Positions 49,960 through 55,609 of a DNA stretch of 64,000 nucleotides are shown here, in pieces. The notes beneath the pieces were generated by a model. The model worked only from the letters and a program-made list of their open reading frames with translations, was not told where the DNA came from and ran no database searches. A program made the translations under genes and the position numbers. Origin of the DNA: an uncultured Chloroflexia bacterium (GTDB lineage: Bacteria > Chloroflexota > Chloroflexia > QHBQ01 > JADMIH01); contig CAWCNY010000003.1 in NCBI GenBank assembly GCA_963797095.1, forward strand, positions 64,001-128,000, written 5' to 3'. How positions within the stretch are numbered: position 1 is the stretch's first letter; every line of letters starts with the position of its first letter.

Positions 49960-50978
49960 AGCTAGCCGGGCGCCCTACTGGACGATACACAAGGGCTAAT
50001 GACTTGGACGACGAAGCCTCTTGAAAGGGGAAGCGTCAGGACTCAGAGCGCACTGTCTCGTCTGACGACGTTTCAGTATCCGAATCGTGACTAAATAGTA
50101 CCCGTTGTGCGCTGTTAGGCTGCCATCAGCAGGTATTGCAGGGCACCAAGGCGCTCCTGAAACAGCCGCCGCTGTTCAGATAGAGGCACCTTCTCTTTTG
50201 CCTTTGTTCGGTATCGGAAGTACTGCCGTTGCTCATCGAACGCTCGGCAGAAACGAGAGGCAGAAGCCAAGTTACCGAATCCTCTAGCCCTCATAAGGCT
50301 TCCTTGGCGGTAGTGTCAGATCTGGGACTGCAATTCGTTCCATCGAAACCGATGACTAATAACCACTGGAGGATGATGGGCTAGAGAGGGAAGTATGTAG
50401 CAACCCAATCTAGACAACTGAATGTTCGATGTGGGGTGAGGAAGAACAACCCGATTCCCCACCGTTGAGGTGAACAACGAAATGCCCATCCCCCACGGTA
50501 GCGAACGGTCATCAATCCGTGAAGCGGGGGTGATAGCGTAGATACTCCAAGCCTCAAAGGGGTATCTCGCCTGGCGGGTGGCATATGGGTAGCTTGGCTT
50601 GTAAGAGCGCTGCACACCGAGAGGTGAGCAGTCGAACGTATGATATATCTGTCGTAACTGACAACAAGCTAAAGAGGCTGGCAAGCTTGGCCCAAAATGG
50701 GCAAGGCTAGAGGCTGGCGATATCTCAGTCGTCCAGCATTCACTCTCCCTAAACCCGGCAGACAGTACGACCCTAAGTGCCACGTAAAACGGACATTCGG
50801 AACGAAGTAACCGCCCCTCACTCTCGTGTACGATCAGTATGATCAGTACGATCACGGTCAACTATGCGAGCAGGTGCCAACCGTATGTGGGGGAGAGGTG
50901 GGATTGCCTGAGAAGCGAATGCCTGGGGTAATGCCCAGGATATGCTGACGCAGGCACGGTACTACGGCAGATAGGGTC

Positions 50979-51830
50979 ATGAGTAGGAGTAGATATGTCA
51001 TGAGCGCGGTCACGGGTCAGGTTATGGGTGCGGCCCAACAGCCAGCGTATGAATGGAAAGACTTGCCATGGAAGCAAATCGAGAGGCATGTCTTCAAGCT
51101 CCAAAAGAGAATCTATCGGGCTTCCGTCCGTGGCGATGTTAGGGCAGTCCACCGGCTACAGAGGTTATTGATGAAATCCTGGTCGGCAAAAGCACTGGCT
51201 GTTCGTAGGGTTACTCAAGACAACCGAGGCAAGAACACAGCCGGAGTGGACGGGGTGAAATCGCTCAACCCAAAACAACGACTACGACTTGTCACGATAC
51301 TGACTTTACCCAAGAGGGCACAACCCACAAGAAGAGTTTGGATACCCAAATCCGCCTCCAAAGAGAACGAAAAACGCCCTCTTGGAATACCAACCATACA
51401 CAATCGAGCAGAACAAGCACTCGCTAAGCTAGCCTTGGAAGGTGAGTGGGAAGCTCGATTTGAACCAAACAGCTACGGTTTTCGACCAGGACGAAGTGCC
51501 CATGATGCGATTGAAGCAATCTTCTTGGGTATTCGCCTCAAGCCAAGATATGTGCTTGATGCCGATATCGCGAAATGTTTTGATCGAATCAACCACACTG
51601 CACTATTGAACAAACTCCAAACCTACCCTCGAATGCGAAGAGCCATCAAAGCATGGCTCAAAGCAGGAGTGATAGAAGGGGAGGAATTGTTCCCGACCGA
51701 GGAAGGAACTCCTCAGGGTGGGGTTGCCTCGCCGCTACTCGCCAATATCGCCTTGCACGGCCTGGAAACATCTATCTGCAAAGCCTTTCCATCGAACCAA
51801 AGACCAATAGTATTAAGGTATGCCGATGAT
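50979..51830 (+). CDS. ltrA: Outer intron RT/maturase, 5' part (RVT_N through YADD)
   Basis: WKQIERHVFKLQKRIY, TAGVDG, RPLGIP, SYGFRPGR, GTPQGG, ending at RYADD. Confidence 0.9.
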
Positions 51831-54378
51831 GTGCGCCATATCACCAGGTGCTAGATACCTTTCGCAGAAAGGAGGGGTTCGGAAGAATAAACCCCTGGGT
51901 CAATGGCTTACCCGATGGCGAAAGCCAAAAGGAACAATAGCATGCCATTAAAGCAGGAGAGAAATGCCACGTCAGAAGATGCTTATGACCTTGTCCTGCA
52001 AGACCCGCGTAATACGGTGAAAGCCAAACTGCTTGAACTTCAGTCTCTAGCGATGCAAGCGTACATCCCCCGATTACAGCATCTAAGGCGGGGCCATCAC
52101 GATAGGGCGACAAAATCGTCGTCGCTCGAACCTTCCGCGTGATGGGCGGTGAGAAACGATCTCACTCAAAGGGGCAGACGAAGCACCTAAGTTACGCTCG
52201 ATACGTCTAGCATTTAGGGAATATGGGATTGCCCAACGGGCCGAGAGGCCCAGGGTAACGGAGCCTCCGTAGTACTCAGAGGACGGGAAAGCCGTCCACA
52301 TTGACCAGGGTACGTCCACGTGAAACCACGTGAGGATTTCATGTTGAACGTAACCAGGCGGGGAAGGGAGGCAGGTGCTTTGAAACCCAGCAAGAGAGGT
52401 ACTCGAGATGAGAAACGCCGAAACTGTACTGGGGATCATCCAGGATCGCGGCAGGAGAGGACTGCTGCTAGAAGATGTCTATCGACAACTGTTCAACCCG
52501 CAACTGTACCTGCTCGCCTATGGCAAGATTTACCGAAACAAAGGAGCGACGACACCGGGAACGACACCGGAAACTGTGGATGGAATGTCCATGATGAAAA
52601 TCGATGCCATCATCGAAGCCTTACGCTTCGAGAGATACAGATGAACACCGGTGAGGCGTATCTACATCGAGAAAAAGCACTCCAAAGGGAAGCCCCAGAG
52701 GAAGTCTCAAGGAAAAGCAATCTCGAAAAAGAAGCGCCCCCTCGGAATACCCGCATGGTCAGACAAACTGTTGGCGGAGGTAATACGCCTCATCCTTGAA
52801 GCATACTACGAACCGCAATTCAGCCCATCTTCCCACGGTTTTCGCCCTGACCGAGGTTGCCACACAGCGCTACGGGAAATCTACCATAAATGGGTGGGCA
52901 CAAAGTGGTTCGTGGAGGGCGACATTTCCGACTGTTTTGGCTCGCTGGATCACACCATCATGATGTCAATACTCAGGGAAAAGCTCCACGATAACCGCTT
53001 TCTGCGCTTGATTGAAGGTTTGCTCAAGGCCGGATATTTGGAAGGGTGGAGATACAACGCCACGCTCAGTGGTAGTGCACAAGGCTCGGTACTTAGCCCC
53101 ATCCTCGCCAATATCTACCTTGCCAAACTGGATAAGTATGTCGAGACGACGCTCTTGTCAACCTACAACCAAGGGAACCGACGCAAGATCAACCCGGAGT
53201 ATCTCCGGCTACGCGCCAGTGTCACGAGGCTAAAACGGATGGGGAAAAAAGAGCAAGCACACAAGTTGCGTCGTCAGATGCAGCAGCTACCCTCCCTTGA
53301 CCCCAACGACCCAGCCTACAGACGGTTGCGCTACATACGGTATGCAGACGATGTGCTTGTGGGTTTCAGCGGCCCACGTAAGGAAGCTGAAGAAATCAAG
53401 CAACTCCTCAAAGAGTTTTTGGGTGATGAACTCAAGCTGACCCTCTCAGAGGAGAAAACGTTGATCACCCATGCACGGAGCAAAGCTGCACGCTTTCTGG
53501 GTTATGAGGTCGTAGTGCTCAACAACGACCACAAACTGGACCGGCGTGGACATCGGAGCATCAACGGCCAGATCGGGCTGAAAGTACCCTCGGACGTAGT
53601 ACGTGCGAAATCTACTGGCTACCTGCACAACGGCAAACCGATACACCGAACGGAACTTATCCACGACAGCGTGTACAGCATCATGGCACAGTACCAGGCG
53701 GAGTACCGGGGCATTGTGGAGTACTATCGGCTGGCTTACAACCTGCACCAACTCAACCGGCTGAGGTGGGTGATGGAACGGTCGCTAACTCAAACACTGG
53801 CACACAAGCTACGCATCAGCGTGAGCAAAATCTACCACCGTTACCAAACCAACATTCAGACAGAAGCGGGTCCACGTGTTGGCCTGCAAGTGGCGGTTGA
53901 GCGCGGAGAGGGAAAGAAGCCACTGATAGCGAAGTGGGGCGGTATTACTCTCGCACGGAATATGAAAGCAGTCCTCAACGACCAACCTACACGTGTTTGG
54001 GGATCACACTCACACACAGAGCTAGAAAAACGGTTCCTGGCAGACACTTGTGAGCTATGCGGCTCACGTGAAGATGTCGAGGTACACCATATTCGAGCAC
54101 TAAAAGACCTCAAACGAAAGGGACGTGCTGATAGACCTGAATGGGTGAAAGTGATGGCGGCACGCCAACGCAAGACGCTGGTGGTCTGCCGAGCATGTCA
54201 CGATGAAATCCACAGAGGGAAACTAACACAGCATACACTACCACGAGTACAACACGAAGCCGCTAATGGAAATGGAGAAGCACTGGAGAGCCGGGTACTC
54301 CGAAAGGCGTAAGCCCGGTTTGGGGAGGGGCGGACAGAAAAGTATCGGTAACGACAACTCGCTGGCCGCCTACTCTAC
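51831..54378 (+). mobile_element. Inner group II intron (mitochondrial-like class, IIA)
   Basis: Starts GTGCG, ends CCTACTCTAC; DV GAGCCGGGTACTCCGAAAGGCGTAAGCCCGGTT; its removal restores YADD-FVVM in frame. Confidence 0.93.
52408..54312 (+). pseudogene. ltrA: Inner intron RT/maturase/HNH protein with an in-frame TGA at 52642
   Basis: ORFs 52408-52644 and 52651-54312 are in the same frame: ERYR*TPVRR, where W is expected; YADD and CELCG..EVHH..C..CH are present. Confidence 0.88.
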
Positions 54379-55353
54379 TTCGTGGTCATGCACGAGAAAT
54401 TGGAGGTTATTGAGCGATGTCAACAAATCGTGACAGAATGGCTCAAGGGCATGGGGTTGGAACTGAAACCCAGTAAAACCCGTATCACGCACACACTACA
54501 CACCTACCAGGGAAACACCGGGTTCGACTTTCTCGGTTTCTCGGTCCGACAATTTCCAGTGGGCAAGACCCACACAGGAAAGAACGGACAGGGCCGAAAG
54601 CTAGGGTTCAAGACCATCATCAGACCAAGCGAAGAAGCTCAGAAACGACACGCCAAAGCACTTGGTGATATCATCCGGAAGATGCGAGGGATCAGTCAGA
54701 TCGACCTGATAACTCTGCTAAATCCAAAGATACGAGGGTGGTGTAATTATCACTCCACCGTCATATCCGGGAAGGTATTCAGCAAGATGAGTGACGTGCT
54801 GTACCATCAGCTAAGACGCTGGGCACAACGCCGTCACCCCAAGAAATCCAAAAGATGGATTGCCAACTGCTACTGGCACCCAAATGAGGGCAAATGGGAT
54901 TTTGCATGCAAAGAAGGAAGGCTAATCCAACATAGGGAGATACCTATCAGAAGGCATGTGAAAGTACAGGGTGTCAAAAGCCCTTATGACGGAGATTGGG
55001 CCTACTGGGGCCGAAGGCTACAGCGCTACCCTGGATTGCACCCGATGGTAGCACAGCTACTAAAGAGGCAGGAAGGGAAATGCGCCTGGTGTGGATTGCA
55101 ATTGAGAAGTGAAGAAATCATGGAGCGTGACCATGACGTCCCAATCGTACTGGGAGGTGGACATGGTATCACAAACCGTAGACTACTTCACGGGTATTGT
55201 CACGACGCAAAGACAGCTCAGGATGGTTCTTCAACCTCTAGAGTTGTCAGAAGTTCCAAAGTTAGGGACCGTAGGACTGAGGAGCCGGATGAGGCGAACA
55301 GTCTCATGTCCGGTTTTGTAGGCGGGCGGGAGGCAGTGATGCCTCTCGCCTAG
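54379..55353 (+). CDS. ltrA: Outer intron RT/maturase, 3' part (RT6-7, domain X, HNH)
   Basis: FVVMHE...GLELKPSKT...FDFLGF...LNPKIRGWCNY...CAWCG...DH...HGYCH. Confidence 0.9.
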   Translation, partial: FVVMHEKLEVIERCQQIVTEWLKGMGLELKPSKTRITHTLHTYQGNTGFDFLGFSVRQFPVGKTHTGKNGQGRKLGFKTIIRPSEEAQKRHAKALGDIIRKMRGISQIDLITLLNPKIRGWCNYHSTVISGKVFSKMSDVLYHQLRRWAQRRHPKKSKRWIANCYWHPNEGKWDFACKEGRLIQHREIPIRRHVKVQGVKSPYDGDWAYWGRRLQRYPGLHPMVAQLLKRQEGKCAWCGLQLRSEEIMERDHDVPIVLGGGHGITNRRLLHGYCHDAKTAQDGSSTSRVVRSSKVRDRRTEEPDEANSLMSGFVGGREAVMPLA

Positions 55354-55609
55354 CCAGCACACGCAGCCCCCCCTGTGGCTGTTCGGGCCCTTGCAAGTCA
55401 CTGATGAACCGGGCTGTTATGCTGCCTGTCGTGGCTACATAGCTACATAGCGCATCCGTGCGTGGAACCACGAGTAATGTGGGCCCATACCCATAATCCT
55501 AATGAAACTGCAAGTTCGGCGCTTCTCCTGGTGCGATCTGACACCCAACGATTAGAATCAAAGCGTCCTCGTTCCCCTGGCATTCTTGTAAAAGGAGAAG
55601 CACTCCACT

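Follow-up and report, generated by a model that had tools for sequence, protein, structure and literature searches.

A clade of IIA-type, endonuclease-bearing group II introns that probably homes to the reverse transcriptase active-site codons of other group II introns

Results

A twintron split at a catalytic motif

The 64,000 nucleotides (nt) analysed here (hereafter, the window) are positions 64,001 to 128,000 of contig CAWCNY010000003.1 from an uncultured Chloroflexia bacterium (GenBank assembly GCA_963797095.1). They contain a twintron, spanning window positions 50979-55358, in which an inner group II intron lies within an outer group II intron. The inner intron (51831-54378) interrupts the reverse transcriptase (RT) gene of the outer one directly 3' of the codons for the active-site motif Tyr-Ala-Asp-Asp (YADD). 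Comparison with its relatives indicates that it very probably belongs to an IIA-type, endonuclease-bearing clade that naturally homes to the DNA for this motif in the RT genes of other group II introns.

The nesting is seen from the outer domain V (55279-55358) and from the split outer protein gene. The 5' exon ends ..GGTATGCCGATGAT at 51830 and the 3' exon opens with TTC at 54379; when joined, they encode ..RYADD/FVVMHEK... (the slash marks the insertion point, here and below) and the reading frame is regained. The Pfam RVT_1 match to the outer protein breaks at the same place, the 5' piece stopping at profile position 155 and the 3' piece resuming at 157, and the TIGR04416 match of the 5' piece stops at position 215. 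The host RT is thus cut in two at the catalytic motif, and the outer intron would be able to make its protein only once the inner intron has spliced. The inner element has the hallmarks of a group II intron, namely a GTGCG 5' end, an open reading frame (ORF; 52408-54312), a domain V-VI at the 3' end, where the full-model match to RF00029 finishes on the last intron base, and exon-binding sites (EBS1 and EBS2) that pair with the 5' exon and do so in its relatives through compensatory changes.

Relatives occupy the same codons

Relatives of the inner intron were found in its own genome, a sister genome, cyanobacteria and soil metagenomes, and in all 20 with a readable 5' flank that flank ends in Y-(A or C)-D-D or FADD. 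A scan of reference genomes gave 39 loci, of which the six closest (70-79% protein identity, all cyanobacteria) lie at RYADD/F or RYADD/L (6/6). Metagenomes gave a further 80; the 12 with at least 67% identity and a readable 5' flank all end in Y-(A or C)-D-D (12/12, one of them a duplicate of a reference locus), and five more, where only the 3' flank is present, continue with TTY. The sister of the window copy (86% identity), in a genome of the same genus (G013), has an intact protein gene and lies at VVRYADD/FVV. Clade introns are 2405-2548 nt long. No clade member was found in a plasmid collection, where the best match to the inner protein was 60%.

The genome of the window itself carries two lineages in two different host genes, one in YADD/F and the other in FADD/F. 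Contig C1 holds a 100% identical, 5'-truncated copy of the entire twintron. The second lineage (69% identity) is present as two nearly identical copies with an intact protein of 620 amino acids, which lie in another host gene at GYIRFADD/FII.

An earlier interpretation, made from the window's letters before any comparison (the sequence-only reading), had proposed that the intron targets the YADD codons of RTs. This is borne out by the insertion of every close homologue with a readable flank at the same RT-gene site and by the covariation of the exon-binding sites with the intron-binding sites (IBS1 and IBS2) of the exon. Homologues at unrelated sites were found only outside the clade; they are an ORF-less relative in a transposase gene and relatives at 52-64% protein identity.

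Several observations concern individual copies. The truncated twintron (C1:492589-495760) is cut at inner-intron position 360 and runs on into the outer 3' part; either incomplete reverse transcription or a rearrangement could have produced it. At C3:567569-569040, the other copy of the FADD-type outer intron has about 1.47 kb of extra insertion in its 5' part relative to the copy on contig C2. In G013 the host gene (G013:C155; loci L141 and L151) looks chimeric when compared with the intron protein at C2:711868 of the window's genome, its 5' half being 93% identical and its 3' half only 46%, which suggests either recombination between twintrons via the shared inner intron or an assembly chimera. 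ORF-less derivatives of inner-intron relatives, with joints 51886>54322 and 52454>54281, are present on contigs of a biocrust metagenome (run X17). On the minus strand of contig C6 (about 300490-302241), two group II introns without ORFs interrupt an IS3-type transposase orfB; one of them is related to the window's inner intron (73-78% identity in parts) and has an EBS2-like loop that fits its flank but no evident EBS1 pairing.

L123, considered as a YADD site from its 3' flank alone, was dropped because it lies outside the clade and differs in the EBS1 region. Invasion of non-intron RT genes (retron or defence RTs) was considered at L051 (YADD/CNIY) and L053 (YCDD), but for each of these hosts the best match is the group II RT/maturase model.

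More distant relatives of the mitochondrial-like (ML) type have other sites. A separate ML-type clade (about 52-60% protein identity) is inserted within domain V of other group II introns (L021, L024, L026, L027, L034, L097, L101, L103, L107, L113-L115, L121, L127 and others); the joined exons fold as a single 34-nt hairpin with a 3' bulge in 14 of the 15 loci evaluated, the insertion lying about 20 nt in. Another sub-clade, mostly from Firmicutes (L020, L022, L025, L028-L030, L032, L035 and L038), shares a homing site in a conserved gene, ..D-N-M-L-K-I/T...

The intron pairs with the YADD codons

The intron RNA is able to pair with exon positions -12 to -8 (the Tyr codon and Ala positions 1-2), -6 to -1 (the two Asp codons) and +1, and the third Ala position lies unpaired between IBS2 and IBS1. 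The G-T wobbles lie at -4, the third position of the first Asp codon, and at -10, the third position of the Tyr codon.

The positions that the sequence-only reading had assigned to EBS2, delta and EBS1, and their pairing with the exons, were all correct when checked against the sequence. Folding agrees, since EBS1 and the EBS2 core both fall in hairpin loops (RNAalifold, 18 sequences), and the EBS1 stem has compensatory double changes in 5 of its 7 pairs in the alignment of 18 relatives. The proposed six-base EBS2 pairing held in part: its five-base core is kept in the relatives, while the sixth pair, formed with position -13 in the window, is inconsistent there, and TAYGC was therefore taken as the working IBS2.

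Pairing of IBS1 with EBS1 extends over 6/6 positions in 19 of 20 members, the exception being L085 (A:C at -1). The IBS2 core pairs at 5/5 positions in 18 of 19 members (L052 has one A:A), and delta pairs with +1 in 16 of 17 (L009 has U:U). The pairs vary on both sides. The -1 pair is A:T, G:C or G:T across the clade and differs even between the window copy (A:T) and its 86%-identical sister in G013 (G:C); EBS2 is GCGAA where the target has a Phe codon (TTTGC) in the Tyr place; at L053, with target YCDD, EBS2 is one base longer and the pairing is shifted; and L048 has a delta G where the 3' exon starts with C (G:C replaces A:T). Judged from these alignments, the pairing is more than chance, because the relatives keep it through compensatory changes.

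The placing of wobbles on synonymous positions, with the third Ala base unpaired, which had been read from the window copy, holds clade-wide. The EBS1 base opposite the third position of the first Asp codon is G in 19/19 members, where the target has T in 14 and C in 5; synonymous codons are tolerated because EBS G residues face pyrimidine third positions. At L091 the intron is antisense to the RT gene, and the antisense of the I-I-R-I codons there reads TATGCGGATGAT, resembling the Y-A-D-D codons. It follows that nucleotide sequence, and not protein context, is recognised.

Site choice beyond base pairing

The genome of the window has 70 matches to T[AT]YGCNGAYGAY. Several of them match from -12 through the +1 T and are nevertheless unoccupied; some of these are outside RT genes and others belong to intron genes of the YADDW type. 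Base pairing is insufficient, on these matches, to account for site choice; because matching sites are unoccupied, other determinants must exist, and they are most likely contacts made by the intron protein. A degenerate host-type intron protein gene at C2:711868 is also unoccupied; it reads YADD/E (GAA) where relatives have F or L, a change that mismatches both delta' and +2.

The fully matching but unoccupied sites favour a reading in which the intron protein does most of the choosing, through conserved flanks in host RT genes, with EBS pairing secondary. It would also fit the periodic conservation of the host flanks (T at -20, -17, +2, +5 and +8, and G at -14) and the need of endonuclease-bearing IIA introns for protein contacts, as known from work on Ll.LtrB. 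As the leading determinant, however, the protein seems doubtful, for compensatory EBS changes follow the target bases, the antisense mimic at L091 has no coding context and the hosts include very divergent RT genes. Recognition by the protein complements homing guided by base pairing more than it replaces it.

A further question is how the intron deals with its own RT gene, as each YADD-homing intron bears a near-perfect copy of the target there and none was seen invaded. The window copy has this motif as TATGCAGACGAT (53341-53352), with G as the next base (53353); as the sequence-only reading had stated, it encodes YADDV and fits both EBS elements. That reading had also offered the +1 G, which would break the delta-delta' pair, as a means by which the intron shields its own gene. 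The sister in G013, with its intact protein gene, likewise has YADDV with a +1 G opposite delta A, and in the genome of the window +1 is T at the 4 occupied host sites and C, C and G at three unoccupied host-type sites (a small sample with non-independent copies). As a property of the clade the proposal fails: the own motif is RYADDW (TGG, +1 T) in 18 of 19 members (of 20 if G013 is counted), and in most of these it pairs with the EBS1, EBS2 and delta of the same intron, yet none is self-invaded. Because YADDV is limited to the window copy and G013, avoidance by the +1 G is at best a feature of one sub-lineage, and as an explanation it is unlikely. Host and own sites also differ consistently elsewhere, where the intron protein could discriminate instead. 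Position -20 is T in 16 of 18 host sites and A in 18/18 own sites, +2 is T in 15 of 16 host sites and G in 17 of 18 own sites, and +4 is G or A in hosts and C in own sites. In these alignments -20, +2 and +4 are candidate positions at which the protein could tell self from host.

One clade in many hosts

The 17 YADD rows and the five 3'-flank-only rows form one group in a tree built from 109 intron proteins (22/22, FastTree support 98). The same split was recovered with IQ-TREE on 56 rows (20/20 rows; Shimodaira-Hasegawa-like approximate likelihood ratio test support 98). The hosts tested are all group II intron RT/maturases and are highly diverse. Their RVT_1-matching 5' pieces end at profile position 155 in 13/13, and the TIGR04416 match breaks between 215 and 216.

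The trees of hosts and introns disagree. Branch lengths go up to 4.8 among the hosts but stay below 0.5 for the inner proteins. Approximately unbiased (AU) tests were run on groups that had been picked with the trees already in view. With the host data they reject the inner clade L010+L044+L011+L036 (p = 0.0007), and with the inner data the host pairs L011+C2 and L036+L050 (p = 5e-7 and 7e-7). The introns of L061 and L062 are 99.9% identical over 2429 nt, and their 5' exons have no blastn match to each other. The host genes, on this evidence from the trees, are independently invaded. A single ancient twintron, inherited and diverged as a unit so that the shared YADD position would reflect common descent and not ongoing homing, is highly improbable and largely refuted by the sequences: the host and inner trees do agree in part (L010 groups with L044 in both, and L063, L065 and L071 group with the window copy in both), but the far greater divergence of the host proteins, the rejection of congruence in the AU tests, the near-identical introns in host genes without DNA similarity, the antisense insertion of L091 at a sequence mimic and the EBS bases that follow target differences between close relatives all stand against it.

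Besides the late naming of the groups in the AU tests, other points weigh against homing to YADD codons as the general explanation. The splicing and mobility of the clade are inferred from DNA sequence. The intron ends of the relatives were set by profile alignment and the GTGYG motif, not by experiment, and clade members are not all independent because metagenome contigs may stem from related organisms. Pairing is imperfect in L085, L052 (in IBS2) and L009 (at delta), matching sites stay unoccupied, and the same genome has an ORF-less relative inside a gene for an IS3-type transposase.

Class of the inner intron and structure of the outer intron

The inner protein has Intron_maturas2 (1.8e-14) and AI2M-like_HNH (1.4e-15) matches in Pfam, where the hosts carry RVT_N, GIIM and HNH instead. 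In addition, delta lies directly 5' of EBS1 and pairs with the first 3'-exon base in 16 of 17 members, as expected of ML/IIA introns. These sequence features place the inner element, with its endonuclease domain, among the mitochondrial-like (IIA-type) group II introns, an assignment in which the Pfam families were equated with the ML class by our own reading and, of the RNA, only the EBS1 and EBS2 hairpins were folded. Rfam domain I-IV models gave no match to the inner intron even at E <= 1. Its protein gene has a premature TGA in the context RYR-stop-TPVRR, where homologues have Trp, and the window copy is probably non-autonomous or a fossil, its own protein lost to this nonsense codon. The coordinates of all features are collected in Table 1.

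Table 1 Features of the twintron in the window.
Feature	Position	Strand	Basis or remark
Outer intron protein gene, first part (RVT_N, RVT_1 to YADD codons)	50979-51830	+	ORF; Pfam RVT_N 1.4e-34, RVT_1 4.4e-26
IBS2 GTATGC (core TATGC, 51819-51823, = Tyr codon and Ala positions 1-2)	51818-51823	+	Pairs with EBS2
Unpaired position -7 (Ala third codon position)	51824	+	All four bases seen there among relatives
IBS1 GATGAT (Asp-Asp codons)	51825-51830	+	6/6 positions pair with EBS1, one G-T wobble
Inner group II intron (mitochondrial-like / IIA type), 2548 nt	51831-54378	+	GTGCG start, CTAC end; Rfam RF00029; homologues
Small hairpin with EBS2 core in loop	52052-52067	+	4 base pairs; RNAalifold, 18 sequences; one pair changed on both sides
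EBS2 GCGTAC	52059-52064	+	
EBS1 hairpin GGGCGAC/GTCGCTC, stem of 7 base pairs, 9-nt loop with delta and EBS1	52105-52127	+	Alignment of 18 relatives
delta A	52114	+	Pairs with exon +1 T
EBS1 ATCGTC	52115-52120	+	In hairpin loop
Inner intron protein gene (RT, maturase, HNH endonuclease), pseudogene	52408-54312	+	In-frame TGA 52642-52644; Pfam RVT_1, Intron_maturas2, AI2M-like_HNH
Inner intron's own YADD codons and +1 G (YADDV)	53341-53353	+	EBS1 and EBS2 of the same intron pair with them fully; sole mismatch is +1 G against delta
Inner intron domains V-VI, up to 3' splice site	54286-54378	+	Rfam RF00029, 55.8 bits (gathering score 40), model 1-77 of 77
delta', first base (T) of outer gene second part	54379	+	
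Second part of outer intron protein gene (remaining RVT_1, GIIM, HNH)	54379-55353	+	ORF; GIIM 8e-21, HNH 3.4e-6
Outer intron domains V-VI	55279-55358	+	Rfam RF00029 46.3 bits, RF04357 53.6 bits

The 3' end of the outer intron is matched in the truncated second twintron copy, where similarity likewise stops near 55361. For its 5' end Rfam domain I-IV models gave no match, a GTGCGAC start of the kind found in other hosts is lacking, and alignment with four other hosts places it only at about 50390-50440. Just upstream, window positions 50111-50285 are repeated at no fewer than 8 other places in the genome (74-81% identity).

A search for an empty orthologous host site found no close copy of the outer intron in 40 relatives (best match 72% identity), nor elsewhere in its own genome apart from the truncated twintron copy. 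Contigs from four DNA sequencing runs include matches identical to the window over the 5' junction (X1, 51678-52061). None of the contigs links 51830 to 54379, which means that an empty site was not observed.

Discussion

The retrohoming pathway, in which the intron reverse-splices into its target and is copied by its own RT, has been worked out for Ll.LtrB. By analogy, the RNA of the present introns would reverse-splice into YADD-encoding DNA and be copied back by the intron's own RT, with the intron protein presumably contacting flanking positions during homing. Ll.LtrB has an endonuclease-bearing protein and the same layout of the target, with IBS2 at -12 to -8, an unpaired -7, IBS1 at -6 to -1 and the delta-delta' pair at +1, and of the host sites here 15 of 16 have the T at +5. 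Ll.LtrB itself targets a relaxase gene and not RT genes.

Homing to this motif has a precedent. According to the account given of them by Tourasse and Kolsto (2008; PMC2504315), B.th.I3, M.a.I5, UA.I3 and P.l.I2 insert in the RYADD catalytic motif of RT genes, have IBS1 and IBS2 made of the RYADD codons and are mostly twintrons in group II intron protein genes, so that the idea is already published. In the same account these introns are about 1.8 kb long, have a B-like structure and proteins without an endonuclease domain, and are held together by 58-67% sequence homology as the criterion; one sits in a non-intron RT gene, and priming at the replication fork was proposed for them. The present clade shares the insertion in the catalytic motif, and its IBS1 and IBS2 are likewise formed by the RYADD codons. 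Going by the published description, it is set apart by its length of 2.4-2.5 kb (2405-2548 nt), by its Intron_maturas2 and AI2M-like HNH endonuclease domains, by a delta next to EBS1 that pairs with +1 and by tested hosts that are all group II intron RT/maturases. The archaeal case of RYADD homing reportedly traces to Dai and Zimmerly in 2003.

Nested group II introns are known from other settings. The part of Mohr et al. (2010; PMC2882425) on the TeI3 in TeI4 twintrons of Thermosynechococcus elongatus takes identical inner copies in diverged outer introns as recent independent insertions; those inner introns are ORF-less and separate the first ATG codon of the outer ORF from the second, which is another conserved site of an intron ORF, whereas the present clade lies at the catalytic motif. 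Nested introns of Methanosarcina are described as homing, repeatedly and site-specifically, to RT genes that belong to other group II introns and as keeping away from host genes; in these descriptions they are archaeal, have up to five nesting levels and belong to a different intron class (PMC4424553, PMC1712230). In the lycopod mitochondrial twintron atp9i87g2 the inner intron breaks the outer maturase frame and serial splicing regains it, but that twintron is organellar, its inner intron is ORF-less and the passages on it describe no clade-wide site specificity (PMC7049729).

As it is mitochondrial-like (IIA) with an endonuclease domain, the present clade is a second YADD-homing lineage. A literature search, which had the curated group II intron database outside its range, turned up no account in which an ML-class intron with an endonuclease homes to RYADD. 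What appears to be new is the second lineage itself, of a different class and with an endonuclease domain, together with the clade-wide evidence for the delta-delta' pair and for wobble-tolerant pairing, and the observation that a clade carries its own target. A broader proposal is offered tentatively, as a possibility that falls well short of likely: that the endonuclease-bearing ML-type radiation may hunt group II introns, with one clade at YADD, whose G residues in EBS1 and EBS2 cover all synonymous Tyr and Asp codons and whose gap between IBS2 and IBS1 takes the four-fold Ala position, another in domain V, and a step at positions such as -20 and +2 to +4 in which the protein would read self from non-self.

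The codons of the RT active site are probably the most conserved DNA stretch of any retroelement. An intron that homes to YADD would have a target available wherever other retroelements live, and its insertion would come without cost to the cell. The use of the same strategy by a second, structurally different intron class suggests convergent hyperparasitism among retroelements. The clade would also be a natural example of an RNA guide arranged to tolerate codon degeneracy, and a clean system for how a retroelement spares its own copy of the target. For annotation it holds a warning, as RT genes that look split, in cyanobacteria and in bacteria from soil, may be twintrons, not pseudogenes.

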